A stretch of 64,000 nt of DNA from an uncultured Gammaproteobacteria bacterium (GTDB lineage: Bacteria; Patescibacteriota; Patescibacteriia; Buchananbacterales; UBA6539), in assembly GCA_964535715.1 (NCBI GenBank), contig CAZHUO010000003.1:256-64255 (forward strand), in the 5' to 3' direction. Below, in pieces: positions 985 to 23,668 of the stretch. A program made the position numbers and the translations under genes. The notes beneath the pieces are model-generated. The model was not told where the DNA came from. It did no database searches and saw only the letters and a list, made by a program, of their open reading frames with translations. The stretch's first letter is position 1; each line of letters starts with the position of its first letter.

Positions 985-3315
985 ATGAGCATACTTTTTG
1001 ATAAAATTAACATTTTATTGCTAATTACCGCTTCATTAAATTTTTTCTTAGGGTTTATTATTTTTTTTAATGGCCGTAACAAAAAGATTAATATTGTTTA
1101 TACTTTAAATATTGTAACAATTATCAGCTGGGTTTTAGGGATGGTTTTATACCGCTCAGCTCCTTTAGAAACAAGCCTATTTTGGTGTACCATTTTATAT
1201 ATTGCACCAACCTTGATTGCCGGCAGTTTCTTATATTTTACTTATATCTTTCCAACAAAAATCGATCAAAATGTTCCCCTGAAGAGTGCCGTGATATTTT
1301 TGATAAATGCAATAATTATAATAATGTTAGCATGGCCTGGGTTGATCATTAAAGCGGTTAACATTAATCCTGGATTTGAAAAAGAAATTATATTTACCAA
1401 AGTTTATTGGTTTTATTTTTTATATATTGCCGGATTTTTTTCTTATGGTTTTCAAAGGCTATTTTTGCGGTATTTAAAGAGTGCCGGGATAGAGCGCCTG
1501 CAAATTCTTTATTTTTTATTGGGATATGCCATAGCTTCCAATTTAGCATTTGTGACTAATTTGATAATGCCATGGATAGGTTATTTCTTTTTGAATTGGC
1601 TCGGTCAAGTATTTACAGTGGCTATGGTTGGATTTACTACATATGCCATTCTTCGTTATCGCCTGATGGATATTCGTATTGTCGCTAGGAAACTTTTTAT
1701 TTATATTGGAATTGCCGGCTTTACTTACGGCATTTTTTATTTTTTGATCTGGGTTTATAACCATGCGTTTGGAAGTGTATTTTCTTCAGCTTCATATATC
1801 ACTGGTTTGGTTGTGGCTCCACTCTTTGTTTTGGCATTTTATAGTTTGGATAGATATTTAAAGATTTTTGCAAACAAATATCTTTTTGTTTCTCTGTATA
1901 ATTATCAAGATACTATAAGTAAACTAACCAACAAACTGAATTATTATATTGATCTTAATGAAATTATAGACTTGATTGTTGATACTATCAAAAAAACAAT
2001 GCAATTAGATCGTGCTGGTGTTTTATTGGTTAATTCACAAACAAATCCGACTAAATATCAAATTGCCAAAGTGATTGGTTTTAATCGTCAAAACGGTATT
2101 TCATTGGTTCAAGATAATTTTCTTACAAAGTATTTGTCCAAAACACAGAAACTATTGGTTAGAGATGAACTTAATTTTTTAGCTAGAAATTTTAAAACCA
2201 TTGAGGAAAAACAAAATTTTGAGAAACTGTATGATCATATGAAGCATATTGAAGCGTCTATATGCCTACCCTTAATGAGCAATAAGAAATTGATTGGCAT
2301 TATCGTCTTAGGGTCAAAAGTATCAGGTGATGCCTACAGCAAGGAAGATTTGGAATTACTAAATACACTTGCCAATCAGGCCGGTATTGCCGTTGACAAT
2401 GCCAGACTTTACAAAGAGGTTCAGGATTTCAGTAAAACTTTAAAGCAAAAAGTTAATGAGCAGACCAAAGAAATTAAAACCCAAAGCAAAGATATTGAGG
2501 AAAAAAACAATTACCTTCAGGAATTACTTAACATGAAAACCGATTTTTTGCGGGTAGTAAACCATCAATTAAATACGCCTTTGGCGGTAATGAAAGGTTA
2601 TTTTTCCATGATGGAAGAAGGATCGTATCCGAAAGAAAAAGCGATGAAATCGGTCAAAGGCGGGTTGGAAAGAATCAGTTCAACGGTGTCCGACTTCTGG
2701 GATGCCTATGAGCTTGAAGGCGAAAGAATGAATATGGAGCCGCAAAAAACCGATATCACCGAAATCGTCAACCATTTGATTCCGGAAAAGCAGAAGCTGC
2801 AGTTGGCTCAGGAAAGAAATTTGGAAGTATCGGTTAAAAAGCCGGATTTTTCCGCCAGAGGCGGATCCGCCTTTGGCGGAAAAATACCCATTGTTTGGTG
2901 CGACTACAAAAAAACCGCTCATGTGATTTCCAACCTTTTGGATAATGCCGTTTATTATACCCGCAAAGGTTCGGTTACTCTTTCATATGAAATGGCAGGT
3001 AAAGATTATTTGAAAATTAATATCAAAGACACCGGAGTGGGCATATCAGAAGAAGGCAAAAAAAAGCTTTTTCAGAAATTCTCCCGCGGGCAAAACGCCA
3101 CCGATCTTCGGCCTGACGGTTCTGGACTTGGACTTTTTATTGCCAAAAAAATCGTAGAGGGAAACAACGGGGAAATATCTTGTTTCAGCGAAGGCATAAA
3201 TAAGGGTTCAACTTTCAGCTTTACATTACCCGTTTATAAAAATCAACAATCAATCGCAGGACAGGAAAAGCCGGTTACCAGAGAAAAAAAGATTGTCATA
3301 TTTGACCAAGATTAA
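985..3315 (+). CDS. Membrane sensor histidine kinase with a multi-TM N-terminus and GAF, HisKA and HATPase_c domains
   Basis: About 8 hydrophobic helices in the first 300 aa. HisKA H-box (VNHQLNTPLAVMKGY). HATPase N, G1 and G2 boxes (NLLDNAVYYT, DTGVGI, GSGLGL). Confidence 0.85.
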   Translation: MSILFDKINILLLITASLNFFLGFIIFFNGRNKKINIVYTLNIVTIISWVLGMVLYRSAPLETSLFWCTILYIAPTLIAGSFLYFTYIFPTKIDQNVPLKSAVIFLINAIIIIMLAWPGLIIKAVNINPGFEKEIIFTKVYWFYFLYIAGFFSYGFQRLFLRYLKSAGIERLQILYFLLGYAIASNLAFVTNLIMPWIGYFFLNWLGQVFTVAMVGFTTYAILRYRLMDIRIVARKLFIYIGIAGFTYGIFYFLIWVYNHAFGSVFSSASYITGLVVAPLFVLAFYSLDRYLKIFANKYLFVSLYNYQDTISKLTNKLNYYIDLNEIIDLIVDTIKKTMQLDRAGVLLVNSQTNPTKYQIAKVIGFNRQNGISLVQDNFLTKYLSKTQKLLVRDELNFLARNFKTIEEKQNFEKLYDHMKHIEASICLPLMSNKKLIGIIVLGSKVSGDAYSKEDLELLNTLANQAGIAVDNARLYKEVQDFSKTLKQKVNEQTKEIKTQSKDIEEKNNYLQELLNMKTDFLRVVNHQLNTPLAVMKGYFSMMEEGSYPKEKAMKSVKGGLERISSTVSDFWDAYELEGERMNMEPQKTDITEIVNHLIPEKQKLQLAQERNLEVSVKKPDFSARGGSAFGGKIPIVWCDYKKTAHVISNLLDNAVYYTRKGSVTLSYEMAGKDYLKINIKDTGVGISEEGKKKLFQKFSRGQNATDLRPDGSGLGLFIAKKIVEGNNGEISCFSEGINKGSTFSFTLPVYKNQQSIAGQEKPVTREKKIVIFDQD

Positions 3316-3334: not shown

Positions 3335-3778
3335 ATGAAACCCACTAACATAATGAAATCAGACAAAGGCCGGATCCTTTTGGTTGAAGACGAACAGGGC
3401 TTGGTTGATATTTACCATGATTTTTTACTGAACAACGGCTATGATTTTTTATCTACCAAAAATATTGAAGAAGCTTTGATGCTAACCGAGTTTGAACAGC
3501 CAGATTTGGTTTTGCTTGATATCATTATCCCCAAGCCGGAAAACACGATTGCCGAACAGGGCTGGGAATACTTGGAGGCGGTAAAAAAGAATCCTAAGAC
3601 CAAGGACATTCCAATTGTAATTTTCACCAATCTTGATACCCACCGAGACAGGGTAAGAAGCCAAGAAATGGGCGCAGTGGCTTATATTTTCAAAAGAGAC
3701 TGTACGCCAAGAGAAGTGATGGAGGCAATTGACAAAATAATTAAAAAGGATACAGAGAATAAAAAGAAGAAAAAGTAG
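3335..3778 (+). CDS. Stand-alone response regulator receiver (CheY-like) with a Lys-rich tail
   Basis: ILLVEDE ... LVLLDIIIP ... T/K receiver motifs. No output domain. Confidence 0.8.
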   Translation: MKPTNIMKSDKGRILLVEDEQGLVDIYHDFLLNNGYDFLSTKNIEEALMLTEFEQPDLVLLDIIIPKPENTIAEQGWEYLEAVKKNPKTKDIPIVIFTNLDTHRDRVRSQEMGAVAYIFKRDCTPREVMEAIDKIIKKDTENKKKKK

Positions 3779-3833: not shown

Positions 3834-3864
3834 AGCGCGCCATTTTTTGCGCGTTTTATTTTAA
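3834..3864 (+). terminator. Intrinsic terminator after the receiver
   Basis: GCGCGCC-atttttt-GCGCG hairpin followed by TTTTATTTT. Confidence 0.5.
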
Positions 3865-3958
3865 CAATTGACGGTTCGAGGAATAAAGAGTATATTAATA
3901 TGATGCTTTTTCCTGGTTTATTTTCTAGTATAATTGATTTAATTTTTAATAATTTACA

Positions 3959-5191
3959 ATGACTCAAGTGAATAAAAAAGGTAATGTTTTAATGGGTGCT
4001 CAATTTTGGGCGTACGGCCCGGCTGGCAAAGCGAATGCCATCGCCCATGAATTAAAAAATTTAGGCATCAGAGTGGATTTTGTTGGTGCCGAAACATCAT
4101 ACCAGCTGTGTAAAGCCTCTGGCCATTTTAATAATTTATATAATTTTAATTCCGGTCCACGTTTGGATAAATTCCCCAATTATCAAGTTGTTGTTTCGGT
4201 TATGGATCCATATCTTGCCTTATGGGCTTACAAGAGGAAACTTCCATTAATTTATGCAGATAGTATGTCATGGTTTTGGCGCTGGAAAGATATAAATTCT
4301 ACTTCTGTTAAAAATTTTTTAGTTCATGTTGAAGATATTGGTTTCAACGAGGGTTGTAAAATATTAGATGAGTTTCAGCCAGATCAACGTCAGCTTTTTG
4401 CCCATTTGATCTCTGATAAGATTTTGGGGCAAGGCAATCCTCAGGTCGTAAGTGAAACGAAAGATAAGGCTTCAAACGCTGGTTCAATGATTGATTTAAA
4501 CTATATTAAGAAGACAAACAGAGATACTTTGTTAATTTCTTTAAGTGGTGGCATCTCGCCAGCCACTGACCTTGAAGCGGCTTTGAAGTATACAAAATTA
4601 ATTATAGATTTATTAGAGAATAGACTTGAAAAGTGGCCTGGTGCTAAACGCTTTGTTATAACTGGTCATCCTTTAGTAATTTCTAAATTCAAAAATTATC
4701 CAAAGATTCTAAAACCGACGGCTCTTTCCCAACCTGATTTTTTGAAAGAATTAAATCGGGCAGTGGCCGTGTTAGTGCCATGCGGATTTACAACCATTTA
4801 CGAATCTTTAGCTTATGGTGCGCCCGTTGCTTTTCTGCCCGAGAATCATAATGGTCATGTTTATGAATATTTAACCATTACTAAGGGTATAGATGATCTA
4901 GGTAAAAAAGAAAAAGTTTTTCCGCATGCGTTATTTTGCATTAAGGACGCTGATTTAAATAAGATTAAACCGATTGAGGAATCAATGGATCTGATAAAGA
5001 ATTATACTAATCAATATTTTAATTCAGCTGATTTTAAAAATTATTATTTGAATAAAGTTGACTGGTGGCTTGATTATTTTAAAAATGCCAGGACGATTTA
5101 TGCCAATCAGAGAAAACAGATTTTGACAACCATCCCCGACTTTCGAGGAGCGGTTAGGGTAGCAAAGGCCGCTGCTAAAATTATTAAATAG
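3959..5191 (+). CDS. GT-B fold glycosyltransferase (GT1/GT28, MurG/UDP-glycosyltransferase-like)
   Basis: Gly-rich N-terminal acceptor-domain loop (GAQFWAYGPAGKANA). The C-terminal donor-domain pattern is ...GHP...PCGFTTIYESLAYGAPVAFLPENHNGHVYE. Confidence 0.55.
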   Translation: MTQVNKKGNVLMGAQFWAYGPAGKANAIAHELKNLGIRVDFVGAETSYQLCKASGHFNNLYNFNSGPRLDKFPNYQVVVSVMDPYLALWAYKRKLPLIYADSMSWFWRWKDINSTSVKNFLVHVEDIGFNEGCKILDEFQPDQRQLFAHLISDKILGQGNPQVVSETKDKASNAGSMIDLNYIKKTNRDTLLISLSGGISPATDLEAALKYTKLIIDLLENRLEKWPGAKRFVITGHPLVISKFKNYPKILKPTALSQPDFLKELNRAVAVLVPCGFTTIYESLAYGAPVAFLPENHNGHVYEYLTITKGIDDLGKKEKVFPHALFCIKDADLNKIKPIEESMDLIKNYTNQYFNSADFKNYYLNKVDWWLDYFKNARTIYANQRKQILTTIPDFRGAVRVAKAAAKIIK

Positions 5192-5192
5192 T

Positions 5193-6152
5193 ATGAAAAA
5201 AATATTATATTTAGGTACATCCCAGTTTTCCGAAATGATGAACACCGAAAGGTGGCAGCTTACTAACGGAATGATTAAGACCGAAAGCTTTATCTTTTTT
5301 GATCTAAAACAACGTCAAGAAAAAAATATAGATTTATACAAATTATGGGTCAAAAATAATAGACCCAGTTTTATTATACTGGAAGATTACGATTGGGCTC
5401 ATAAATTAGATTTGCCACTTGAATATATTAACGCGGACAAGGTTCCCGTTCCTGTTTTGGGTTTTATTGCAGATTATTGGTATGATCCGAAAGAGAAGCT
5501 GGAATATTATGTTAAAAATAATATTAAGGGTTTGATTGCGATTCACGAAGCAGCAAATCAGTATATCAATGAAAATTTTGGTCAACAGATCAAAAAGATA
5601 TTTAATATACCATTTTCCATTGATGGAAATGAATTTTCGGATAAACCCAGGCAAAAAGAATATGATATTTTATGTTCTGGCTTTATGGGAGATTTATATC
5701 CATTGCGCCAGAGAATCCGAGACATCTTAAAGCAGAATTCAAAAATTAATACTTATTTTTTAGAACATCCCGGTTACTGGAAAAAAAATGAGAAAGTTGG
5801 CTTACGGGGCAAGGATTATTATGCGGTTATGGAAAAGGCAAAGTTCGTCATCTCAAGTACTGGAATCTATAATATCAGCGCTAGAAAACATATAGAAATA
5901 GTAGCTTCTCGGGCAAAAATACTAGGTAATATTACAGGATTTGACGAGCATAAGATTTTTGAAAGTTTTACTTTGCCGCTGGATCGTAAAATGACCGACG
6001 AGCAAATTAACAGCTTAATTGAGGAGGGGGTTAAAAATTGGGGTTGGTCAAGTGAGAATGAGAAAAATAGGCAATTAGTTTTAAATATGCATGATCCTGC
6101 CCTTATAGCAAAATCTCTCACAGATAAATTAGAACAAGATGGTAATGTATGA
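5193..6152 (+). CDS. CgeB-like / glycosyltransferase-family-1-like protein (DUF3880-like)
   Basis: The pattern resembles spore-maturation CgeB-type GT1_2 domains (YDILCSGFMG...R...L, Y..ME.AKFVIS). The assignment is tentative. Confidence 0.35.
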   Translation: MKKILYLGTSQFSEMMNTERWQLTNGMIKTESFIFFDLKQRQEKNIDLYKLWVKNNRPSFIILEDYDWAHKLDLPLEYINADKVPVPVLGFIADYWYDPKEKLEYYVKNNIKGLIAIHEAANQYINENFGQQIKKIFNIPFSIDGNEFSDKPRQKEYDILCSGFMGDLYPLRQRIRDILKQNSKINTYFLEHPGYWKKNEKVGLRGKDYYAVMEKAKFVISSTGIYNISARKHIEIVASRAKILGNITGFDEHKIFESFTLPLDRKMTDEQINSLIEEGVKNWGWSSENEKNRQLVLNMHDPALIAKSLTDKLEQDGNV

Positions 6153-7798
6153 ATAAGCCAGATTTGAAAAAAATTAATGTTGTCATACTGGCTGCTGGTA
6201 AAGGAACCCGGATAAAAAAAGTAGCTTCTGGTACTCCAAAAGCTTTGCTTGAAATCGCCGGCATCCCAGCATTGGTTTTAATAATGAGAAGATTAATAAA
6301 GCAGGGGTTCAGGACATTTACCCTGGTTGTTAATAAGGATAATAAAAAGCAGATCGAAGATGTTGTTAAAAATGCTTTTGCCGGTGTCAACCTTAATTTG
6401 GAAGCCATCATTCAGCCTCAGTCTAAAGGCCCGGCTCACGCTTTTTTCTATGGCCTTAAAAAAGTTAATTTGGATAATGACACGTTGCTTTGCTTGTCGG
6501 ATACATTATTTGATGAAGATTTACCGGTTGGCTATGATTGGGTCGGTACCTCTTTGGCAAAAGGTGTCGGTAAATGGTGCTGGGTAGAAACAACAAATAA
6601 AAAAGTTATTAATTTTTTTGACAAAATCCAACCGCCAAAGCACGTTGAAGAGGTTTTGATTGGCTTGTATTATTTTAATAATTCAAAGTTTGTTTATGAT
6701 GAATTAGCTAAAATTATTAGAAGCAATTCTAAACGAGCCGAGGGGGAGTTTCAGCTTAGCCAGATACTCGATCTTTATAAAAGTAAGCATAATATAAAAT
6801 CTTTTATAGTTAATAGTTGGATTGATTGTGGAACCGAAGAAAATTATTTTAATGCACAAAAAATATATACGAATCATCGTCATTTTAACTCAATCATTAT
6901 CAAAAACGGCAATTCTAATTGTTGCATCGTCAAAAAAGGCAATCAAAATAAAATACAAAATGAAATAGATTGGTTCAATTTGGCTGTTAAGCAGAATAGA
7001 TTAATGGTTCCTAAGATTAGGAAGAACAGCAAGAATTCTTACAAAATGAATTTTATTAATGATCCTCTTTTATCATCTCTGTATTTATATAATCCAATTA
7101 ATATTAATGACTTTTTAAAGATAATAAGGAAGTTATACAGTTTCGCCGTTAAATATCTTTGGCGTGACGGTAAAAAATATAAAGATATTAATATAAAAAA
7201 TGATTGTCAGTTGATGTACGAGAATAAGCCGTTTGAGAGATTAATGGATTGGGAGATGTGGAGGACTTTTAAATCCATTCGGGCGATTAAAATTAATGGT
7301 AAGAATTATAGTAAACTTTATGATTTGTTGTCTAAAGCCTTGAAATTGTCCTCATTAAACAATCATAAGCCCGTGAAGAGCTTGATTCATGGTGATTTTC
7401 ATTTTGGCAATATTTTTTACAACAAAAGAAAACAATCTTTTGTATTCATTGATCCACGCGGTAGATTTGGAAATTCCAGCGGCATGGTAGGCGATATTTA
7501 TTATGATTTAGCCAAGTTGCGCCATTCATATCACGGAATGTATGATGCGATAGTTGAGGGGCTTTATGTTTTAGATAGAAAGTCAAAAGGTAATTTTGTT
7601 TTTAAAGTCGGTCCTGTCCGTAGCCAATATATAAAAAAGATTGATCAATTTATTTCGTCTTCGGGGTTTGATATCAGTGTGGTTAAATCTATAGAATTAG
7701 GAATTTTATTAAGCCTTATTCCATTTCATCAGGAGTCCCAAAATAATCAATTGGCATTTTTTCTGCAAGCAGTTATGTTGGCTCAAGAATTAGTTTAA
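6149..7798 (+). CDS. Bifunctional protein with an N-terminal sugar-phosphate nucleotidyltransferase and a C-terminal APH/choline-kinase-fold kinase (AmgK/MurU-like or LicA/LicC-like fusion)
   Basis: The NTP_transferase G-loop is VVILAAGKGTRIKK....PKALLEIAG. The C-terminal kinase motifs are LIHGDFHFGNIFY and FIDPRGRFG...GDIYYDLAKL (Brenner/APH catalytic loop plus a DFG-like motif). Confidence 0.7.
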   Translation: MNKPDLKKINVVILAAGKGTRIKKVASGTPKALLEIAGIPALVLIMRRLIKQGFRTFTLVVNKDNKKQIEDVVKNAFAGVNLNLEAIIQPQSKGPAHAFFYGLKKVNLDNDTLLCLSDTLFDEDLPVGYDWVGTSLAKGVGKWCWVETTNKKVINFFDKIQPPKHVEEVLIGLYYFNNSKFVYDELAKIIRSNSKRAEGEFQLSQILDLYKSKHNIKSFIVNSWIDCGTEENYFNAQKIYTNHRHFNSIIIKNGNSNCCIVKKGNQNKIQNEIDWFNLAVKQNRLMVPKIRKNSKNSYKMNFINDPLLSSLYLYNPININDFLKIIRKLYSFAVKYLWRDGKKYKDINIKNDCQLMYENKPFERLMDWEMWRTFKSIRAIKINGKNYSKLYDLLSKALKLSSLNNHKPVKSLIHGDFHFGNIFYNKRKQSFVFIDPRGRFGNSSGMVGDIYYDLAKLRHSYHGMYDAIVEGLYVLDRKSKGNFVFKVGPVRSQYIKKIDQFISSSGFDISVVKSIELGILLSLIPFHQESQNNQLAFFLQAVMLAQELV

Positions 7799-7805
7799 TA
7801 ATAAA

Positions 7806-8537
7806 ATGAAAAAAGGGGTAACAATTATTTCATCAACCGCACAAGATATTTTTGTTGATTCAGAAAATAAGGTTGTAAAAAAGAAAAAAGGCGGGCCAGG
7901 TTACTTTATCAGGCAAGCATTGGAAGACAGAAAGGTTCCTTTTAATAATATCAATAAGTGGGACACTAAGATAGAATTATATTTGACCAAGTCCGGAAAA
8001 CCAAACAATAAATTATTTAAGGGTAAGGTTGTAGGAGTAGTGCCTAAATTTAATTTGCCAATAAAACAGATGACGGAATATAGTATTGTTTCAACTATCG
8101 CTAATGAATGGAAATTAAGGGAAATAAAAAATTATAAAGGTAAGTTGTTTCTAGATATCCAGGGTTATGTTCGAGATCCGAAGAAATTTTCAGTTAAAAA
8201 ACAATGGCCTCAAATTTCTTCTTTGGTAGAATATATTTATTGTCTTAAGGGTACAAACCAAGAGGTTAAACTTTTACCTAAAAGTGTTATCAATATTGCT
8301 AAGAAAAAATTATTGATAATAACCGACGGTTCAAATAAAGTAAAGGTGTTCCATGATAATAAGAAGTTTGAATTCAGCATTGTTAAAGTGAACAACCTTT
8401 TCGATTACATTGGTGCGGGTGATACTTTTTTCGGCCATTTTGTTGCCGGCTTATACAAAGGATTTACTATGAATAATTCGGCTAAAATTGCCATTAATAA
8501 GACTAGAATTTTTTTAGAAAATAAATTAACTATTTAA
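7806..8537 (+). CDS. PfkB-family (ribokinase-like) sugar kinase, short form
   Basis: C-terminal GAGDTF anion-hole signature (DYIGAGDTFFGHFVAGL). N-terminal GG-like dinucleotide (KGGPGYF). Confidence 0.6.
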   Translation: MKKGVTIISSTAQDIFVDSENKVVKKKKGGPGYFIRQALEDRKVPFNNINKWDTKIELYLTKSGKPNNKLFKGKVVGVVPKFNLPIKQMTEYSIVSTIANEWKLREIKNYKGKLFLDIQGYVRDPKKFSVKKQWPQISSLVEYIYCLKGTNQEVKLLPKSVINIAKKKLLIITDGSNKVKVFHDNKKFEFSIVKVNNLFDYIGAGDTFFGHFVAGLYKGFTMNNSAKIAINKTRIFLENKLTI

Positions 8538-8549
8538 TTATCAAAAACT

Positions 8550-9203
8550 ATGAAACCATGGCAAGAAAATAGAAAAGAAACTAAGAAATTTTTTCAAAAA
8601 AAACAAAAAGAAGGTTTGTCATTAGGATCATCTCCCTGGACTACGCTAGCAGTTGGTAAGGAATTGCAACAATTAGTAATTGATGGCGTTATCAAGGAGG
8701 GAATGGTCGCTATGGACGTGGGCTGCGGAATTGGCGTAGAGGCAATGTATCTAGCCAAGCAGGGATTAAAAGTTACTGGTCTCGATTTTATACCCAAGAC
8801 TATTGAAACAGCCAAAGAAATGGCTAAGTTAGCTGAAGCGGATGTTGATTTAATCTCTGATGATTTTATCGATATGGATTTAAAAGAATACGAAGGCAAA
8901 TTTGATTTAGTTATTGATCAGGGTTGTTTTCACCATATTCCGGTAGAGGAAAGAATTAACTATGCTGAAAGAGTTTATTCTTTGTTGTCAGATGACGGGA
9001 TATTTTTTTTGCGGGGATTTTCTGATGAGATGTTGCCTTCACCAACTGGCGATGGCCCGATTAGACTGACTTCAGATGCTATTATTCATAGTTTTTATAA
9101 GTTGTTCTTTATTGAGAAACTTTATCGGTTTAGAAATATACCTTTGCCTAATGTGAATAAACCTCAAATTTTTTGGGCTTTTTTAGGTAAGAAGAGGTGT
9201 TAA
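8550..9203 (+). CDS. Class I SAM-dependent methyltransferase
   Basis: Motif I VAMDVGCGIGVEA. Motif post-I VTGLDFIP. Motif II LVIDQGCFHHI. Confidence 0.75.
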   Translation: MKPWQENRKETKKFFQKKQKEGLSLGSSPWTTLAVGKELQQLVIDGVIKEGMVAMDVGCGIGVEAMYLAKQGLKVTGLDFIPKTIETAKEMAKLAEADVDLISDDFIDMDLKEYEGKFDLVIDQGCFHHIPVEERINYAERVYSLLSDDGIFFLRGFSDEMLPSPTGDGPIRLTSDAIIHSFYKLFFIEKLYRFRNIPLPNVNKPQIFWAFLGKKRC

Positions 9204-9658
9204 AATATTTTATGCCAAAATCAAAGACTATAAAAACAAGATCAGGAAAAATTGTTCACTATTCAGTAGGAGCATTAATTAGAAAAAACGGCAAGTATCT
9301 TCTTGTTGATCGAAAAAAACCTCCGTTTGGCTTTGCTGGTATTGCCGGTCATATCGAAGTTAATGAAGATAAGGATATAGCCTTAAAACGTGAAGTAAAG
9401 GAGGAGAGTGGCTTGGATGTAAAAAAATTTAAACTACTTTTTAAAGAGAAGATTGATTGGAATTCGTGTAGTAAGGGTGTAAACAGTCACTTTTGGTATC
9501 TTTATAAATGTGAGGTCGTGGGCAAAGTAAAAGAGAATAAAATGGAGGTTAAATCTATTGGGTGGTATTCAATAAAAGATATTCAAAAATTAAAACTGGA
9601 GAAAGTCTGGGAATATTGGTTTAGGAAAATCAATGTTATAAAAATTAATTATGAATAA
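9197..9658 (+). CDS. NUDIX hydrolase
   Basis: Nudix box GHIEVNEDKDIALKREVKEESGL (GX5EX7REUXEEXGU). Confidence 0.8.
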   Translation: MLKYFMPKSKTIKTRSGKIVHYSVGALIRKNGKYLLVDRKKPPFGFAGIAGHIEVNEDKDIALKREVKEESGLDVKKFKLLFKEKIDWNSCSKGVNSHFWYLYKCEVVGKVKENKMEVKSIGWYSIKDIQKLKLEKVWEYWFRKINVIKINYE

Positions 9659-11078
9659 CAGAATTGTCTTAATATCATTGTATGATTTAGATTCCATAGC
9701 GATTCGAACCCTTCATTCTCTTTTAGAAAAAAATAAATTTGATGTATCTTCTATTTTTTTCGGTGAGACGGTTCATAATGTTGACATGCCTGTTTTGTCA
9801 GTAAGCCAAGTTAAAAGTTTGCTTAAACTTATAGAAGATGTTGATCCGGTTTTAGTCGGAATTAGTGTTAAATCTTTATTTTTCAACATAGCTAGCAAAT
9901 TAACTAATGAAATAAAGAAAAAATTGAATATAAAGGTTATATGGGGAGGTATTCATCCAACAATAATGCCAGATAATTGTCTTAAATTTTCAGATATGGT
10001 GTGTGTTGGAGAGGGGGAAGGATTGATATTGGATTTGATGAATAGATTATCGAGAGATAGGCCGATAGACGATATTAATAATTTATGGCTGAATATAGCA
10101 GGAAAAGTCATCAATAATAACTTACGGCCTTTAATCCAAAATTTAGATTCAATACCTTCGACGGATTTTTCTAACCATAAAAAGTATTTTATTAAGAATG
10201 ATGGCCATATTTATAATCCAAATCAGGTAAAGGAGAAATATTATTTTTGTCTTACAACTCGTGGCTGTCCGCTTAACTGCTCTTATTGCTATGGTAGCGT
10301 GCTGAGAAGGATTTATCACAATAAGGGTAATTATTTAAGAAGAAGAGGTGTAAATAATGTAATAGAGGAATTAGTGTCTGTAAAGAAGAATTTCAAGAAT
10401 TTAAAGTTTATATTTTTTACTGATGATGTATTTACTTTTGACATCGATTGGTTGTTTGACTTTTCGAAGAAATATAAGAAAAATATAAATATACCATTTC
10501 GTTGTTATTGTCACCCTAAAATGCTTAATGAAAAAATTTTAAAAATTCTAAAATATGCTGGAGTTGAAAAAATAAAAATTGGCATACAATCTGGATCTGA
10601 GGTAATAAGGCATGACTATCTGAAAAGGTATGATACCAATAAGGAGATAATAGTGGTTGCTAAGCTGTTAAAGAAATATAAAGTCAGTTGCCACTATGAT
10701 TTAATTGTTGATAATCCTTTAGAATCGGAAGAAGATAAGTTGGAAACCTTAAATTTATTGTTAGAATTGCCTCGACCATTTGAACTCTCTACCTTTATTT
10801 TAACTAATTTCCCCGGAACAGATCTTACAAAATTATTTGTAGATAAAGGAATAATTTATGAGGATGATGTAGAGGGTAGCGATAAAATAACTAGCAAATG
10901 GAGGCCAGAATTGGATTTTTCTAGAGGAAATGACTATGTATTTTGGAACACTTTGTATCATTTGGTTAAAAAAAATTATATACCTAAAAAATTTATAATT
11001 AAATTAAGTAAAAATTATTTTTTCAAAAATAATCCAAGGCCAGTTGCTACTTTGATGAAGCATATATTAAAAAATTAA
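9651..11078 (+). CDS. B12-binding-domain radical SAM protein (class B radical SAM)
   Basis: N-terminal Rossmann-like B12-binding region. CPLNCSYC (CxxxCxxC) radical SAM cluster motif at about residue 206. Confidence 0.7.
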   Translation: MNNRIVLISLYDLDSIAIRTLHSLLEKNKFDVSSIFFGETVHNVDMPVLSVSQVKSLLKLIEDVDPVLVGISVKSLFFNIASKLTNEIKKKLNIKVIWGGIHPTIMPDNCLKFSDMVCVGEGEGLILDLMNRLSRDRPIDDINNLWLNIAGKVINNNLRPLIQNLDSIPSTDFSNHKKYFIKNDGHIYNPNQVKEKYYFCLTTRGCPLNCSYCYGSVLRRIYHNKGNYLRRRGVNNVIEELVSVKKNFKNLKFIFFTDDVFTFDIDWLFDFSKKYKKNINIPFRCYCHPKMLNEKILKILKYAGVEKIKIGIQSGSEVIRHDYLKRYDTNKEIIVVAKLLKKYKVSCHYDLIVDNPLESEEDKLETLNLLLELPRPFELSTFILTNFPGTDLTKLFVDKGIIYEDDVEGSDKITSKWRPELDFSRGNDYVFWNTLYHLVKKNYIPKKFIIKLSKNYFFKNNPRPVATLMKHILKN

Positions 11079-11096
11079 TTATATAAGAAAGTATTT

Positions 11097-11540
11097 ATGA
11101 AAATAACAATTTGTGGCAGCATTTCTTTCTTTGACGAAATGAATGAAATTAAGTCAAAGCTAGAAAAAATGGGACATAAAGTAAAATGTCCTCTGTATGA
11201 AATTAAAAACCATAACGGTGAGAAGATATCTGATCGAGAGTATTACGAGATTAGAAAGAAATCAACTCACCGTAAAAAATGGGTTTGGGAACAGAAAGGA
11301 GAGGCAATTAAGGAGCATTTTCGTAAGGTTATGTGGTCTGATATTATTCTAGTTGTTAATCATGACAAGGGTGATATTAAGGGATACATAGGTCCGAATA
11401 CTTTAATGGAAATGGGATTAGCTTTTTTCAAAAATAAAAAAATATTTTTGTATAATAAAATTCCAAACATTCCTTTGCGCGAAGAAGTATTAGGCCTAAA
11501 GCCTATTGTAATTGATAAAAATCTTAAAATGATTCAGTAG
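11097..11540 (+). CDS. Nucleoside 2-deoxyribosyltransferase-like (flavodoxin-like fold) small protein
   Basis: N-terminal MKITICGS. C-terminal GPNTLMEMGLAFF with a candidate Glu nucleophile, as in the NDT/PnuC-associated family. The assignment is tentative. Confidence 0.3.
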   Translation: MKITICGSISFFDEMNEIKSKLEKMGHKVKCPLYEIKNHNGEKISDREYYEIRKKSTHRKKWVWEQKGEAIKEHFRKVMWSDIILVVNHDKGDIKGYIGPNTLMEMGLAFFKNKKIFLYNKIPNIPLREEVLGLKPIVIDKNLKMIQ

Positions 11541-11576: not shown

Positions 11577-12608
11577 ATGTTAAACGAAATCGAAAAATTA
11601 AAAGAGTCATTTAACCAGGAAATTGATGCTATTTCTAATATTGACATGCTAGATAAGCTAGAGGTTGATTATTTGGGCAGGAAATCCGGTAAGTTGAATA
11701 ATATATTACGTGGGCTTAAAGACTTATCAGAAGATGACCGTAAGAAAATTGGTTCTTTGGCTAATCAGTTAAGAAAAGAAATTGAAGGAAGAATTGTATC
11801 TAAACGGAAAGAGTTGTCTCACAGTAAGTCTAGCGTAGAGTTTTTAGATGTTACTCTACCAGGGACTAAGTTACCGGAAGGGCATCTGCATTTAGTAACC
11901 CAGGCGATAAGGGAAATAACCCACATATTTGAAAGGATAGGTTTCACTCGGGTTAAATACCCGGAAGTTGAGTGGGATTATTATGCTTTTGAAGCTTTGA
12001 ATATGCCACCTGATCATCCGGCTCGTGATGAATGGGAGACTTTTTTTATTGATAAAGATCCGGTAGGCCCTAAAGGTAAAAGAGTTTTAACCCCTCACAC
12101 TTCTTCCGGCCAGGTTAGAGAGATGGAAAGAGGAAAATTGCCGATACGAATGATTAATATTTCTAAGTGTTATAGGCGACAGGCTGATGTTTCCCATTTA
12201 GCGATGTTTCATCAGTTTGAAGGACTATTAATTGATGAGCATGTAACTATTGCAAATTTAAAAGGAACCCTTGAATATTTTTTCAAAAATTATTATGGTC
12301 CAGACAGGCAATATCGTTTAAGGCCTTTTCATTTCAGATTTACTGAGCCGAGTTTTGAAATTGATGTTTCTTGTGATCTCTGCAAAGGCAAGGGATGCAA
12401 GATGTGTAAAGCTGGCTGGCTTGAACTTGGTGGCGCCGGGATGGTTCATCCTAATGTTTTGAAAGCTGGAAAAATTGACCCCAATAAATATTCTGGCTTT
12501 GCTTTTGGCTGGGGCGTTGAAAGAGTATTTTTAATGAAGCCGGGATTGAATATCCCTGATATTAGAATGCTGTATAATAATGATTTGAGATTTTTGCAGC
12601 AATTTTAA
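11577..12608 (+). CDS. pheS: Phenylalanine--tRNA ligase alpha subunit
   Basis: Class II motifs: TSSGQVR, FHQFEGLLID, GWLELGGAGMVHPNVL and GFAFGWGVERV. It carries a 4-Cys insertion (CDLCKGKGCKMCK). No pheT follows. Confidence 0.9.
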   Translation: MLNEIEKLKESFNQEIDAISNIDMLDKLEVDYLGRKSGKLNNILRGLKDLSEDDRKKIGSLANQLRKEIEGRIVSKRKELSHSKSSVEFLDVTLPGTKLPEGHLHLVTQAIREITHIFERIGFTRVKYPEVEWDYYAFEALNMPPDHPARDEWETFFIDKDPVGPKGKRVLTPHTSSGQVREMERGKLPIRMINISKCYRRQADVSHLAMFHQFEGLLIDEHVTIANLKGTLEYFFKNYYGPDRQYRLRPFHFRFTEPSFEIDVSCDLCKGKGCKMCKAGWLELGGAGMVHPNVLKAGKIDPNKYSGFAFGWGVERVFLMKPGLNIPDIRMLYNNDLRFLQQF

Positions 12609-12671: not shown

Positions 12672-13796
12672 TTACGAAAGGTAGCCGTGAGTGCCACTTT
12701 GGTTTACGCCCAGGTAGACCCGGTTGCGTAACTCATTGGCTTCCTCTTGGAGCAATGATCTCTCGTGAGACCTGAGGACAATTCTTGCCAGGATATTCTT
12801 TTGACCTGGCTTTATCCCGAGGCGTTGGATTGCCTGCGGAGGCAGATCGTCATACGCCGTTTCCGACAAGATGGTTACTTCTTCCAATATCTCTACCTTG
12901 TCGTCCATAGCATCTCTTATCGCCTCGCAGATGTCTTCCTCGGTGCATTCGTTAGCCACCGAAAATGACATGTCCTGTCGAACGGGAGGATACTTTGAGA
13001 CTGGCTGGTAGTGATCGAGATTGGCCATCTGACGCTTGATTCTTGGATCTTCCGATCGGAGAATACGAATGTCGTCGATGCCCTTGATAATCATCACCAG
13101 TCGATCCAATCCCATACCCATCGCCAGCCCGGAATATTCCTCTGGGTTTAATCCGGCGTCGTTCAGGACCTCAGGATGAGCTTCGCCACATTCTAGGACT
13201 TCCAGCCACTCGCCTTTAACGAGAATCTCCACCTCTAGACCGTTGATAGTGTAGGGATGTTTCACCTCGTTCGCCCGATATTCACAACCAGGCACGACAA
13301 GTGAGATTACGGTCTCGATCAGAGAAATCAGTGCCTGACGTTCAAGTCGAGGTTCACCTTTCCTGACTCGCCAGATGTCCAGCTGATGCGGTTCGCCACA
13401 ATGGGTCTTGTTGACAACGTCACGGCGATAGCATATCCCCGGACAAATAACGAGATAGTCATCGACACCTCTTTCCCTTGCCTTCTGTAGAACGTCGGGG
13501 ATCATCGCTGAAGTGTGCGTCCTTAAGACTGTGTCATGGGACACATATCTCGTGTAGATTGAAGACCTGCCCGTATTGTCTTTAGGGAAACGCAGCCTGT
13601 CGAAATTGTTGGCCACCGTGGTTATTGGATTGGTTCTCACCACTTCTGGCGTTGGCCAATCCGCAAGCTCGATGAAACCGGTTACCAGTTTCTGAACAAC
13701 AAGGTTGATGGCGTGAATACCATTTTTTGGATCGGAAAGATCCGGGATCGCTAGAGTTTCCCTTAGTCTTCTCTCGGTCATCACTTCTATTCTCAT
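12672..13796 (-). CDS. Monomeric (mitochondrial-type) PheRS-like protein with a PheS class II catalytic core fused to a C-terminal FDX-ACB anticodon-binding-like domain. It is GC-rich. The start is probably at the internal Met preceded by AGGAGG; the ORF track extends it to 13841.
   Basis: Class II motifs LRTHTS, ICPGICYRRD, WLEVLECGEAHPEVL and YSGLAMGMGLDRL. The C-terminal ~100 aa resemble the FDX-ACB domain of PheT and mitochondrial PheRS. The coding GC is about 50%. Confidence 0.65.
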   Translation of the reverse strand: MRIEVMTERRLRETLAIPDLSDPKNGIHAINLVVQKLVTGFIELADWPTPEVVRTNPITTVANNFDRLRFPKDNTGRSSIYTRYVSHDTVLRTHTSAMIPDVLQKARERGVDDYLVICPGICYRRDVVNKTHCGEPHQLDIWRVRKGEPRLERQALISLIETVISLVVPGCEYRANEVKHPYTINGLEVEILVKGEWLEVLECGEAHPEVLNDAGLNPEEYSGLAMGMGLDRLVMIIKGIDDIRILRSEDPRIKRQMANLDHYQPVSKYPPVRQDMSFSVANECTEEDICEAIRDAMDDKVEILEEVTILSETAYDDLPPQAIQRLGIKPGQKNILARIVLRSHERSLLQEEANELRNRVYLGVNQSGTHGYLS

Positions 13797-13866
13797 TGTA
13801 TTCACCTCCTTTCTCTGTAAGGTTTGAGTTTCAAAGGTCATTATTTCCTAACTAGGAAATCATTTT

Positions 13867-14354: not shown

Positions 14355-14768
14355 ATGAATCAAAGAGTCAGGGCAATTATTATTAGACAAAATAAAATAC
14401 TTCTTATAAAAAGAGTAAAACCGAATGAAACTTATTGGGTAATTCCCGGCGGCGGTATTGAAAAAGGCGAGACAAAAGAACAGGCATTGATCAGAGAAAT
14501 CAAGGAAGAACTAGGCTTAGATATTAAACCAAAAGAATTATTCTTGAAAAGAAAATCAGACAAGTCTGGCATGGAAGGCATAACTGAATATTTTTTCACG
14601 GCTGACATTGTTGGCGGTAAACTTGGATCCGGTAAAGGCCCTGAATATGAACCGAATTCTAGTTATCAAGGTAAATATGAATTAGAATGGGTAGATATTT
14701 TTGATTTGTCTAAAATTGATTTAAAACCCCAAGAAGTTAAAGACTTAATTATCAAATTATTTAAATGA
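14355..14768 (+). CDS. NUDIX hydrolase
   Basis: Nudix box GGGIEKGETKEQALIREIKEELGL. Confidence 0.8.
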   Translation: MNQRVRAIIIRQNKILLIKRVKPNETYWVIPGGGIEKGETKEQALIREIKEELGLDIKPKELFLKRKSDKSGMEGITEYFFTADIVGGKLGSGKGPEYEPNSSYQGKYELEWVDIFDLSKIDLKPQEVKDLIIKLFK

Positions 14769-14769
14769 A

Positions 14770-15375
14770 ATGAAAAGATTACTTTTAACATCTCATGGCT
14801 TTTCTGATGAACCTGTCCGTAAGGCATTTTTAAAATTATTAGATAAGCCAGTAAAAAATTTAACCGCCGCCATAATTACCACAGCCTCGGTTGATCATAA
14901 AGAAAATAATAAATATGCTGTCTCAACCAAAGAGTATTTTGAAAAATTGGGATTCAAAGAAGTTGAGTTTGCTGACATAGAATTTGATGATCCAAATATA
15001 CTTAAAAATTTTGATTTCATCTATATAAACGGTGGTAATACATTTTATCTCTTACACCACCTCAAGAAAAGTGGTGCCGATGAAGTATTAAAAGAAATAG
15101 CCGACAAAGCTATTTTAGTCGGCACCAGCGCCGGTGCTGTAGTTTTGGGGCCGGATACTAAAATCGCAGCCGAGTTTGACGACGAGCGAAATACGGTCGG
15201 ACTAAAGGATTTTTCAGCCTTAGATTTAACTGATATTATTGTCATCCCTCATTATCGCGAGGAATTAGAAAGCGACATTAAAAATTTTGAAAAAGAAAAT
15301 AGCTGTAAAGTGACTAGATTAAAAGACGGCCAGGCAGTGAGTATAATGGGTAATAAAGTTGAATTTATCGGATAG
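14770..15375 (+). CDS. Peptidase E / S51 family (class I glutamine amidotransferase-like) dipeptidase
   Basis: YINGGNTFYLL ... LVGTSAGAVV (Ser nucleophile context of PepE/cyanophycinase-like enzymes). Confidence 0.7.
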   Translation: MKRLLLTSHGFSDEPVRKAFLKLLDKPVKNLTAAIITTASVDHKENNKYAVSTKEYFEKLGFKEVEFADIEFDDPNILKNFDFIYINGGNTFYLLHHLKKSGADEVLKEIADKAILVGTSAGAVVLGPDTKIAAEFDDERNTVGLKDFSALDLTDIIVIPHYREELESDIKNFEKENSCKVTRLKDGQAVSIMGNKVEFIG

Positions 15376-15666
15376 ACTATTTATGCTATAAAAGTTTGAT
15401 TAAGTCAAATTTTTTTACTCATTTTTTCTTTTTATACTGTTGCATTCATCTCATTTACCCTGACCCATTCGACTTCGCTCAGGGTCACCTCGAGTGGAAT
15501 CGAGAGGTGACCGACCCCCGTCAGAACTCATTCTCAAAAGACCCCTGAAACCTTGCCAATAATTGGTTCCAGACCGCAGTGCGGAGCTGAGGATTTTTTG
15601 TTTAGGCAGTCACAGTGGTAGAGTCCCGCGAATGCGGGGTTAACCAATCGGTTCCTGGTTCTGCGC

Positions 15667-15745
15667 CACCTTAATTAATCAAAAAGGCGCATCCCCGCCA
15701 TAGGCGGACAAGCGTCTACGGCGGAGAGTCCAGGCCGCGGAGTAA
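15667..15745. repeat. GC-rich hairpin/pseudoknot-capable repeat, copy A. It is the first unit of a ~114-bp tandem repeat.
   Basis: AAAGGCGCATCCCCGCCATAGGCGGACAAGCGTCTACGGCGG. The unit recurs at 15781 and 45398. Confidence 0.6.
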
Positions 15746-15780
15746 AGGGCTTATTTTATTAAAAAAAATCGTTTCTGCTT

Positions 15781-15880
15781 CACCTTAATTGACTAAAAAG
15801 GCGCATCTTCTCCATAGGCTGACAAGCGCCTCTGACAGGGATTCCAGGCCGCGGCGCCGAGGATTTTTAAAATTAAAAAA
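15781..15880. repeat. GC-rich repeat copy B (tandem with A, period ~114 bp)
   Basis: CACCTTAATTGACTAAAAAGGCGCATCTTCTCCATAGGCTGACAAGCGCCTCTGACAGGGATTCCAGGCCGCGG aligns with copy A, including its flanks. Confidence 0.6.
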
Positions 15881-15924
15881 AAACCATTTTTTCTGGCTTC
15901 TTTTTTTGTGTTAAAATTATTTTT

Positions 15925-17199
15925 TTAGCTGAATATTTTTTTAAATTCTTCCAAGACAACATTTTTATCATTCCAATTAATCTTTTTTCCATCAGCCAGG
16001 CACATTGAATTTTCCGATCCTTTACCGGTGATTATTACCACATCATCTTTATTGGCAGATTTTAGAGCCTCTGCTATTGCTTTTCTTCGATCAATCATTT
16101 TTTTGGCTGAAGTATTATTTTTGGCTATTTCGTTAATTATTGCCATCGGATCTTCATCGTAGGGGTCTTCATTTGTAATAATTGTTTGATCGCAATATTT
16201 TGAAGCCAGTTTGCCTAAAATCGGCCTTTTCCATTTATCTCTGCCGCCGCCGCAAGACCCTAAAACACATATTAATTTGTTTTTTTGGCTTTCGGTTTTT
16301 AGCGTTTGATATGCCTTTTCCAATGAATCGGGGGTAACGGCATAATCAACAAATACTTTATAAGGTGCGGAAATTATTTGTTCCATCCTGCCGGGCATTA
16401 TTTTTATTTTATTTAAGGCATTTTTACAAACATTTAAACTGATATTTTGTGAAAGCCCCAAGGATACAGCCGCCAGCGCATTGTAGATATTGAATTTGCC
16501 CAAAAGATTAAGGCGAAACTTAACACCATCTAAATAAAAGACGGAACCGTCTTTCAAGCATTGATAATCTTTTGTGGCAATTTTCTTTATGTCAAGAAAT
16601 TTATTTGTATTTTTAAGTTTTAGACTGTATAAGTATTTTTTCTCCGACTTAAAATTAAGGAAGTATTCAAAATTATCATCATCAGAATTAATTATATGAA
16701 TATTTTTATTAAGCCTGAAAAGTTCACCTTTTGACTTAAGATAATTTTCAAAACCGCCGTGTGCTTCCAAGTGTTCCGGTGTAACATTGGTAATTATAAC
16801 TGCTTCAAAATCAATAAACCTATGACGATGTTGCTTTATGCCTTCTGAGCTTACTTCAACTACGACATATTGGCAATTTTTTGAAACAGCTTGCCGTAAT
16901 AATTTTTGCAAAGAAAATCTGCCCGGCATTGTCATTCTTGAATCGTTAGGCCAGCTTTTTTCTCTTATTTGAAAATAGACAGAAGACGAAACGGCAATTT
17001 CAAAGCCGGCTTCTTTTAGAATTTCCGAAATCATTCTGACTACGGTTGATTTTCCGTTTGTTCCGGTTACACCGATAACTTTTATTTTTTTGGAAGGATA
17101 TCTGTAAATCATGCAAGCCAAAAAAGCCATGCATAAATGGTAAAAACTAAACGCTGATTTTGGCAGAATTTTTTTAAAAATTGATTTAATATTTTGCAT
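15925..17199 (-). CDS. Mur ligase family protein (MurE/MurT/CapB-like; lacks the MurE N-terminal domain)
   Basis: P-loop VIGVTGTNGKSTV. Mur ligase middle and C-terminal domain patterns are present. Confidence 0.7.
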   Translation of the reverse strand: MQNIKSIFKKILPKSAFSFYHLCMAFLACMIYRYPSKKIKVIGVTGTNGKSTVVRMISEILKEAGFEIAVSSSVYFQIREKSWPNDSRMTMPGRFSLQKLLRQAVSKNCQYVVVEVSSEGIKQHRHRFIDFEAVIITNVTPEHLEAHGGFENYLKSKGELFRLNKNIHIINSDDDNFEYFLNFKSEKKYLYSLKLKNTNKFLDIKKIATKDYQCLKDGSVFYLDGVKFRLNLLGKFNIYNALAAVSLGLSQNISLNVCKNALNKIKIMPGRMEQIISAPYKVFVDYAVTPDSLEKAYQTLKTESQKNKLICVLGSCGGGRDKWKRPILGKLASKYCDQTIITNEDPYDEDPMAIINEIAKNNTSAKKMIDRRKAIAEALKSANKDDVVIITGKGSENSMCLADGKKINWNDKNVVLEEFKKIFS

Positions 17200-17360
17200 T
17201 TTGACTTTCTATTTATTTTGCCTATATAAATGATATAATAATATTGATTATTTTGCCAGCTTGAATTATAATTCGCGAAATTTGACGCCATTTGGCAGTT
17301 TATTTGTTTGTTATTTTCTGTTATAATTATTTTTAGATTAAGTAATTGATATAATATTAC

Positions 17361-18377: not shown

Positions 18378-18435
18378 ATATTTTTAAATTAATATATCAA
18401 ATTTATTTGTTTTGGCTCAAATTGAGTTTTTTTTG

Positions 18436-18464
18436 TTGACTTTTTTGATTATTTATCAGATAAT
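18436..18464 (+). promoter_or_regulatory. Sigma70-like promoter TTGACT-17-GATAAT upstream of the ATP-grasp cluster
   Basis: Read directly; about 55 nt upstream of the ATG at 18520. Confidence 0.45.
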
Positions 18465-18519
18465 TAATAATGTTGCCATTATTTTTTTGGCCAAATAAAT
18501 TTAAGATTAAAAGATAAAA

Positions 18520-22304: not shown

Positions 22305-22308
22305 ATTT

Positions 22309-23649: not shown

Positions 23650-23668
23650 ATCTTATTTTGAATAAGTA

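Follow-up and report, generated by a model that had tools for sequence, protein, structure and literature searches.

A putative composite operon for sugar activation, glycosyl transfer and methylation, with a recurrent four-gene core, in metagenome-derived bacterial DNA

The 64,000-nucleotide (nt) stretch of contig CAZHUO010000003.1 analyzed here, referred to as the window, carries eight co-directional open reading frames (ORFs; g1-g8) on the + strand between positions 3959 and 11540. Together, they encode known kinds of enzymes in an undescribed combination, including two orphan families of glycosyltransferase B (GT-B)-type proteins, g1 and g2. With roughly even confidence, we read this operon as a composite, in which four core genes (g1-g2-g3-g5) would constitute a cytoplasmic glycosylation module, and the remaining genes (g4 and g6-g8) would be add-ons of the window's lineage. 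The composite nature of the operon follows from comparative work, since only g1-g2-g3-g5 recur in relatives. A preliminary description of this DNA, made from the sequence alone, had presented the operon as one unit; this holds for the core, but not for g4, which has one further occurrence, or for g6-g8, which are found in the window lineage only. No description of the gene cluster was found in the literature.

The genes of the operon are tightly packed. A GT1-like GT-B protein, g1 (3959-5191; 410 amino acids, aa), is followed by g2 (5193-6152; 319 aa), a GT4/CgeB-like GT-B protein, and by g3 (6149-7798; 549 aa), a fusion of an RmlA-like nucleotidyltransferase with an APH-fold kinase. The accessory gene g4 (7806-8537; 243 aa) encodes a short PfkB-family kinase, and the core gene g5 (8550-9203; 217 aa) a class I S-adenosylmethionine (SAM) methyltransferase of the small-molecule type. 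The last three genes encode a NUDIX hydrolase that is the partner of g8 (g6; 9197-9658; 153 aa), a radical SAM enzyme with a B12-binding domain (g7; 9651-11078; 475 aa), and a divergent protein of the nucleoside 2-deoxyribosyltransferase (NDT) superfamily (g8; 11097-11540; 147 aa), with g7 nested between the other two. The preliminary description counted nine genes, a number that is reached only if the fusion is counted twice or the downstream pheS is added. The spacing that it gave, -8 to +18 nt, is borne out by the ORF coordinates, with gaps from g1 to g8 of +1, -4, +7, +12, -7, -8, and +18 nt. An alternative start for g6 (ATG at 9212, the call made on locus L001) shortens the protein to 148 aa; its spacing to g5 is then +8 instead of -7 nt. 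In a pattern scan, terminator-like sites were absent from the g1-g8 junctions and matched only inside genes; together with the spacing, this is consistent with a single transcript. At the level of superfamily or fold, all eight of the original family guesses agree with Pfam, NCBIfam, and AlphaFold2 (AF2) models searched with Foldseek.

The closest homologues of the cluster genes come from groundwater and other metagenome assemblies, and all of the sequences compared here derive from such assemblies. The g1-g2-g3-g5 set, which defines the A-type cluster, was found in seven further distinct arrangements (L003, L004, L091, L092, L094, L102, and L104), with its order permuted. For example, the genes run g1-g2-g3-g5 in L003 and L092, but follow a flavin adenine dinucleotide (FAD)-dependent oxidoreductase gene in the order FAD-oxidoreductase-g5-g1-g2-g3 in L004, L091, and L093, the last of which ends within g2. 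In L102 and L103, the order is SrmL-g1-[g2::g3]-g5-FAD-oxidoreductase (SrmL is a synthetase-like gene discussed below), and in L104 it is pheT-g1-g2-g3-g4-g5-ahpC, the only occurrence of g4 outside of the window lineage. Different genes lie beyond g5, such as ahpC in L104 and unrelated genes in L003. The bracketed pair denotes a gene fusion, present in two assemblies (L102:3286-5880 and L103:1264-3858); residues 1-313 of its product, P0003 (864 aa), match g2 and residues 316-864 match g3, so that the GT4-like and sugar-activating enzymes are directly linked.

The linkage of g1 to g5 extends beyond the A-type cluster. Both genes occur together in 15 of the 15 loci with enough flanking DNA, in three architectures. 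In the B-type architecture, the order is g1, phosphoribosyltransferase, lysyl-tRNA synthetase (LysRS), radical SAM/SPASM enzyme, and g5 (L088, L090, L095, L097, L100, and L098, although L098 ends before the last two genes), with the same genes rearranged in L096 and L106. In each of the seven distinct B-type loci, the gene immediately after g1 encodes an APRT/HPT-like (purine) phosphoribosyltransferase, and in three of these loci the two genes overlap. The third architecture, C-type, seen in L105, consists of g1, g5, and LysRS only. Because the g1 proteins of B- and C-type loci are 44-79% identical to one another, their linkage to g5 is not due to recent common descent. In one B-type locus, represented by L106, L107, and L096, the cluster also takes in genes for an epimerase, an additional radical SAM enzyme, a zeta-toxin-like (P-loop) kinase, a GT4 protein, and a NUDIX hydrolase, and appears from these assignments to give the window's functional palette from non-orthologous parts. 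Likewise, the B-type loci independently bring together g1, g5, a purine phosphoribosyltransferase, and a radical SAM enzyme, in parallel to the accessory set of the window. In the collections searched, the core module is known only from a few dozen metagenome-derived sequences, probably of the Candidate Phyla Radiation (CPR).

Membrane functions are consistently missing from this picture. A hydrophobic-stretch scan found no transmembrane segment in any of the eight g1-g8 proteins, and no flippase, polymerase, exporter, carrier-lipid, or secretion gene was found to recur with g1. These results fit the earlier view that the operon is not a lipopolysaccharide, teichoic-acid, or capsule locus.

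The two proteins predicted to transfer sugars, g1 and g2, are recognizable by structure rather than by sequence. Neither has a Pfam match, neither reaches a curated glycosyltransferase-family threshold in Pfam or NCBIfam, and searches against PDB sequences gave nothing useful for either. The NCBIfam matches of g1 are limited to the MJ1255 glycosyltransferase family and, at the top, cytosylglucuronate (CGA) synthase, where the score is 22 bits (cut-off 300) and the alignment is confined to the generic C-terminal domain of GT1 enzymes; g2 matches nothing in NCBIfam. AF2 models built from family alignments are confident for both proteins, with a predicted local distance difference test (pLDDT) score of 91.9 and a predicted template-modeling (pTM) score of 0.91 for g1, and values of 85.9 and 0.84, respectively, for g2. 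In Foldseek searches, the top matches of the g1 model were YojK, OleI, GtfD, and CalG (E ~1e-11, best 9e-12; TM-score ~0.55), and those of the g2 model were BshA, a methylmannose-polysaccharide mannosyltransferase, a tetrahydrobiopterin glucosyltransferase, MshA, and SenB (E 4e-8 and above; TM-score ~0.6). The models thus match GT-B folds with two Rossmann-like domains, GT1-like for g1 and GT4-like for g2. Both families are rare: among 5.8 billion protein clusters, 35 homologues of g1 and 12 of g2 were found, and only 10 loci came out of a metagenome scan with g1.

Like the GT1 enzymes (YojK, OleD/OleI, GtfD, CalG, and the CGA synthases BlsD/MilC), g1 has a GT-B fold with the donor-binding layout in its C-terminal part. 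It differs from them in its low identity (11-14%), in the lack of a Pfam or CAZy-type match, in an N-terminal loop that reads GAQxWAYGPAGK and has no catalytic His, and in the sequence PENHNGHxYE where a D/E-Q donor motif is usual. Similarly, g2 shares the two-domain GT-B fold of the GT4 enzymes that act on soluble acceptors (those listed above), but is only 9-14% identical to them at a TM-score of ~0.6 and lacks their EX7E pair, having only E235, in an R-K-H-x-E context. An analogy with the GT4 pathways also exists at the system level, in that they make glycosides in the cytosol without a membrane step. The methylmannose-polysaccharide pathway likewise pairs a GT4 enzyme with methyltransferases. 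A phage-type DNA glycosyltransferase was considered for g1 and rejected, as it matched BFVD entries less well than the GT1 structures of the PDB.

The g3 protein combines a nucleotidyltransferase domain (approximately residues 8-245) with an APH-fold kinase domain (approximately residues 250-549). The former matches PF00483 (5.5e-17; 62.6 bits, cut-off 21.2) and aligns with RmlA structures over residues 11-238 (6e-10), the full length of the domain; AAGKGTR, D118-T119, and W224-x-D226-x-G228 are conserved, including the W-x-D-x-G-T motif of the sugar site. All catalytic residues of the kinase domain (K262, E272, H414-G-D416, N421, and D435), comprising the ATP-binding Lys/Glu pair, the H-x-D-x4-N loop, and the Mg-binding Asp, are invariant in 27 homologues. 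Its Pfam APH score (21.9) falls just under the cut-off of 23.2, a match to Fructosamin_kin is also sub-threshold, and its profile matches only weakly to APH(2'')-Id, ribulosamine kinase, and methylthioribose kinase in the PDB; choline kinase, AmgK, and NahK are absent from its PDB matches. In AmgK/MurU, NahK/GlmU, and LicCA, as predicted for g3, an APH-fold kinase and a Rossmann-type nucleotidyltransferase act in sequence to convert a free substrate into a donor activated by a nucleoside diphosphate (NDP). The LicCA fusion has the same N-to-C domain order. The g3 kinase differs from AmgK, NahK, and the choline kinases in having motifs of its own (HGDFHFSNI, IDPRG, and YYDxAKLRHS). MurNAc recycling of the AmgK/MurU type was rejected, as g3 does not reach the score of the MurU equivalog model (NF045761; 31.6 bits, cut-off 250, with only residues 11-64 aligned).

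Distant fusions of the g3 type (25-30% identity) are widespread, with at least 517 confirmed matches in one-genome-per-species assemblies. Their neighbors include genes for GT4 and GT2 proteins, a hexapeptide acetyltransferase, WavE, NeuB, a CMP-sugar synthetase, Wzx, and ABC transporters, and from this content the loci are assigned to surface-glycan synthesis; g1 and g2 are absent from them. For one further g3 homologue (L006:9246-12305), at 36% identity, the neighbors are a SIR2_2 protein and a flavoprotein; g1 and g2 are missing there, and the context resembles neither the window-type cluster nor the loci for surface glycans.

The remaining core enzyme, g5, matches the Pfam families Methyltransf_25 and TPMT, and its nearest solved structures are a Methanosarcina acetivorans methyltransferase (6mro; 5e-22) and the heterocycle N-methyltransferase Rv0560c (9e-15). 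Small molecules are the substrates of these enzymes, as they are of the closest structural matches to g1 and g2. The accessory kinase, g4, matches PF00294 (6e-10) over its C-terminal part only (residues 133-229), and its 243 aa fall short of the 302 positions of the PfkB profile. Its top matches are nucleoside kinase and ribokinase, and it keeps the GAGD motif as D-Y-I-G-A-G-D.

Within the g6-g7-g8 block, the outer two genes form a probable nucleotide-processing pair. The g6 protein matches PF00293 (3e-13; 50.4 bits) and has an intact Nudix box, which reads GHIEVNEDKDIALKREVKEESGL and follows the pattern G-x5-E-x7-REVxEExGL (consensus GX5EX7REUXEEXGU). The g8 protein itself scores below threshold against PF05014 (E 0.061; 13.9 bits, threshold 28.8), but 27 of 40 aligned members of its family match (best E 5e-7), and a G99-x5-E105-x-G-x-A motif is conserved in the family, with E105 nearly invariant. 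This large family (1005 representative homologues) consists mostly of stand-alone proteins, although members fused to NUDIX, MazG, and NTPase_I-T domains occur. One such fusion, the NUDIX::g8-like protein P0134, is 51% identical to g6 in its NUDIX half and 47% identical to g8 in the other; since the orthologues of g6 and g8 are fused elsewhere, the two would act together on a nucleotide. The g8 protein is a probable nucleotide N-glycosidase, and the order of events is likely to be removal of pyrophosphate followed by cleavage or exchange of the N-glycosidic bond. A comparable sequence is known from the N-glycosidases of the NDT superfamily that act after a nucleoside triphosphate (NTP) pyrophosphatase (DNPH1/Rcl and MilB/BlsM), with which the g8 family shares PF05014 and the G-x5-E-x-G-x-A nucleophile motif. 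Unlike those enzymes, g8 is below the Pfam threshold, and a search of PDB sequences with the profile of its family found no solved relative. The possibility of a nucleoside or nucleotide pathway, which the preliminary description had left open, has therefore gained real support for g6 and g8 through the fusion, and some for g1.

The enzyme between them, g7, overlaps g6 by 8 nt and exceeds the cut-offs of both PF02310 (49.5 bits) and PF04055 (63.6 bits). Its cluster motif, CPLNCSYC, corresponds to C206-x3-C210-x2-C213. Like the class B radical SAM enzymes AprD4, TokK, CysS, and HpnJ, it combines an N-terminal B12-binding domain with a CxxxCxxC core, but every one of its scores is far under the family cut-offs, including those of its top NCBIfam matches, HpnJ (112 bits relative to 578) and a ladderane-lipid radical SAM enzyme. 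Methylation at carbon, previously proposed for g7, is not established because its nearest solved relative, AprD4 (1.3e-7), is a diol dehydratase and not a methylase.

From the folds, domains, catalytic motifs, gene linkage, and two fusions described above, we infer a route with a given order of steps, stereochemistry, and small-molecule acceptor. The APH-fold kinase of g3 would phosphorylate a free sugar at C1, and the RmlA-like domain would turn the resulting sugar-1-phosphate into an NDP-sugar; the operon may in this way salvage an unusual sugar. The GT4-like g2, probably a retaining enzyme, would use the NDP-sugar made by g3, and the GT1-like g1, probably inverting, would add a second sugar or join the sugar to a soluble acceptor. 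Finally, g5 would methylate the glycosylated product. In the accessory part, g6 would convert an NTP or another NDP-linked compound (NDP-X) into a nucleoside monophosphate (NMP), g8 would cleave or exchange the base of the NMP, and g7 would probably act on the same sugar or nucleotide substrate. With g4 included, these enzymes may modify the core product further, or else provide or recycle those of its parts that derive from nucleotides. The predicted product is a small methylated glycoside and not an exported polymer, and its synthesis in the cytoplasm is favored because neither the window operon nor the recurrent genes include a membrane or export component.

Several points weigh against this proposal. 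The Foldseek TM-scores are modest (0.55-0.63), GT-B folds are also found in enzymes that are not glycosyltransferases, and the usual catalytic His of GT1 enzymes is missing from g1. The sugar, the nucleotide, and the acceptor of the module are all without an assignment. Distant g3 homologues lie beside Wzx, ABC-transporter, and NeuB genes, making a surface or protein target possible. Lastly, none of the relatives examined has g6-g8, which leaves putative co-transcription as the only tie of these genes to the core.

Downstream of the operon, the window contains genes related to aminoacyl-tRNA synthetases (aaRSs). A pheS gene (11577-12608, + strand; TIGR00468, 262 bits, over the cut-off) begins 36 nt after g8 with no terminator-like site in between, and it may be co-transcribed with g1-g8; as far as shown, it is not part of the pathway. 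It is converged upon by SrmL ("PheS-related mystery ligase"; 12672-13841, - strand), which scores 455 bits against NF051887 (cut-off 300), has the layout of a mitochondrial-type phenylalanyl-tRNA synthetase, and has a GC content of 0.496, compared to a window mean of 0.366. Like the cluster, SrmL was not found described in the literature. No pheT was found within the 64-kb window, in spite of the presence of pheS. Similar genes accompany the cluster elsewhere: a class II aaRS gene or a paralogue lies within ~10 kb of every amply flanked g1 locus, a raw linkage given without a chance baseline. In A-type loci, these are PheS/PheT or the PheS-like SrmL (SrmL homologues adjoin the cluster in L091 and L102), and in B- and C-type loci they are LysRS. 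Three B-type loci also have a divergent second LysRS (e.g., L090:9292-10713) that has no recognizable anticodon domain and scores 369 bits relative to a cut-off of 468. SrmL was not accepted as a proven member of the pathway, as pheS-pheT holds the same positions in relatives; given this equivalence of position, shared ancestry of the neighborhood explains the pattern as well as a functional link would. In L090, a protein over the cut-off for RaSEA, the archaeosine radical SAM enzyme (746-1879; 224.7 bits relative to 212), is encoded ~5 kb upstream of the g1 homologue.

Other readings of the cluster have been weighed against the cytoplasmic glycoside. A possible, if rather unlikely, product is a glycoconjugate derived from a nucleoside or nucleobase, as in the blasticidin S and mildiomycin peptidyl-nucleoside pathways: g8, or the phosphoribosyltransferase of B-type loci, would free or install the base, g1 would glycosylate the base or nucleoside in the manner of CGA synthase, and the radical SAM enzyme and g5 would tailor the result. 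The restriction of the NCBIfam matches of g1 to CGA synthase and the MJ1255 family would agree with this, as would the phosphoribosyltransferase genes next to g1 in seven of seven B-type loci, the NDT-like, NUDIX, and nucleoside-kinase-like PfkB genes of the window operon, and a weak match of the B-type radical SAM/SPASM enzyme to BlsE. However, the CGA-synthase score is low and confined to a generic domain, BlsE is far from the top match of the radical SAM/SPASM enzyme, the phosphoribosyltransferase and LysRS may be plain housekeeping genes, and the A-type relatives have no base-handling gene. Glycosylation of a protein or of the cell surface is quite unlikely. Here, g1 and g2 would be glycosyltransferases of proteins (e.g., a translation factor, S-layer protein, or pilin), and the methyl group from g5 would go onto the glycan; such a role could be argued from the surface-glycan loci with distant g3 homologues, from the protein O-glycosyltransferase SdgB in the Foldseek list of g2, and from the location of every amply flanked locus near a translation-related aaRS gene. 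It is at odds with the lack of carrier-lipid, flippase, or secretion genes recurring with g1, with the small-molecule substrates of the top structural neighbors, and with the absence of g1 and g2 from those same surface-glycan loci.

The operon could instead be less coherent than proposed, or part of something larger. It is unlikely that the core and g4/g6-g8 are functionally unrelated, with ordinary salvage and house-cleaning genes sharing a transcript in a compact genome. This would account for the confinement of g6-g8 to the window lineage and for the different genes that follow g5 in L104 and L003, and it suits the mostly stand-alone g8 family and the second NUDIX gene of the window (14355-14768), but frames that overlap or nearly abut (-7 or +8, -8, and +18 nt) agree with one transcript, recruitment of radical SAM enzymes, and in one case of a NUDIX enzyme, is seen in B-type clusters too, and a B12-domain radical SAM gene nested between NUDIX and NDT-like genes is atypical of salvage. 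On a broader view, which we consider very unlikely, g1 and g5, their variable sugar, nucleotide, and radical SAM partners, and the adjacent class II aaRS genes or paralogues, the latter being SrmL at the A-type cluster and the divergent second LysRS of some B-type clusters, form one system specific to these small-genome bacteria, which either makes an aminoacyl- or nucleoside-type glycoconjugate (e.g., an aaRS-directed inhibitor, accompanied by a resistant aaRS copy) or glycosylates and methylates tRNA or a translation factor. An ordinary LicA/LicC/LicD locus for phosphocholine decoration, the alternative raised in the preliminary description, is extremely improbable and was rejected. Two very distant g3 homologues (22-24% identity) are labeled "choline kinase" by the Joint Genome Institute, and LicC (1jyk) matches g3 at 9e-4, but over residues 8-63 only, whereas RmlA aligns along the whole nucleotidyltransferase domain and shares its sugar-site motif. 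Furthermore, none of the eight ORFs matches Choline_kinase (PF01633) or LicD in Pfam, the g3 kinase profile retrieves no choline kinase from the PDB, and g1 and g2 have GT-B folds.

Upstream of the operon lie a histidine kinase with 7TM, GAF, HisKA, and HATPase domains (985-3315, + strand) and a stand-alone receiver (3335-3778, + strand), both recognized previously and identified here by their Pfam domains. A terminator-like hairpin (3834-3855, + strand; a 7-bp stem with five G-C pairs, then a T-run) closes this unit, and a sigma-70-like promoter candidate, TTGACG-17-TATATT (3868-3896, + strand; 10 of 12 matches), precedes g1. Both sites are present where they had been reported, but promoter-like sites are not enriched over shuffled sequence (40 observed relative to 39.4 expected), so the promoter is plausible only. 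The kinase and receiver adjoin the cluster only on L001 and L002, whose g1-g3 proteins equal those of the window; control by these two proteins was rejected, as neither is kept beside the cluster in any diverged relative. A riboswitch or other leader RNA was likewise rejected, since an Rfam scan of window positions 1-64000 found no family at gathering score, tRNAs included. Anti-phage defense was also dismissed, as PADLOC gave only generic methyltransferase and NUDIX matches. Farther downstream, positions 14355-25003 encode the second NUDIX hydrolase, a peptidase S51, a Mur-ligase-like protein, an AAT-family acyltransferase, a 454-aa protein, two ATP-grasp ligases (807 and 446 aa), and a pyridoxal phosphate-dependent decarboxylase, which may constitute a cluster for ligating peptides or amino-acid polymers.

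Should the module prove to be routine glycan decoration, its value would be limited to the annotation of orphan families. If the core module does make a soluble methylated glycoside, it would add to the very small number of secondary-type pathways that have been assigned to ultra-small, host-dependent bacteria, and g1 and g2 would define two glycosyltransferase families not represented by models in Pfam or NCBIfam. The g2::g3 and NUDIX::NDT-like fusions provide direct, testable enzyme pairings, and the constant aaRS neighborhood gives the "mystery ligase" SrmL a concrete genomic context.

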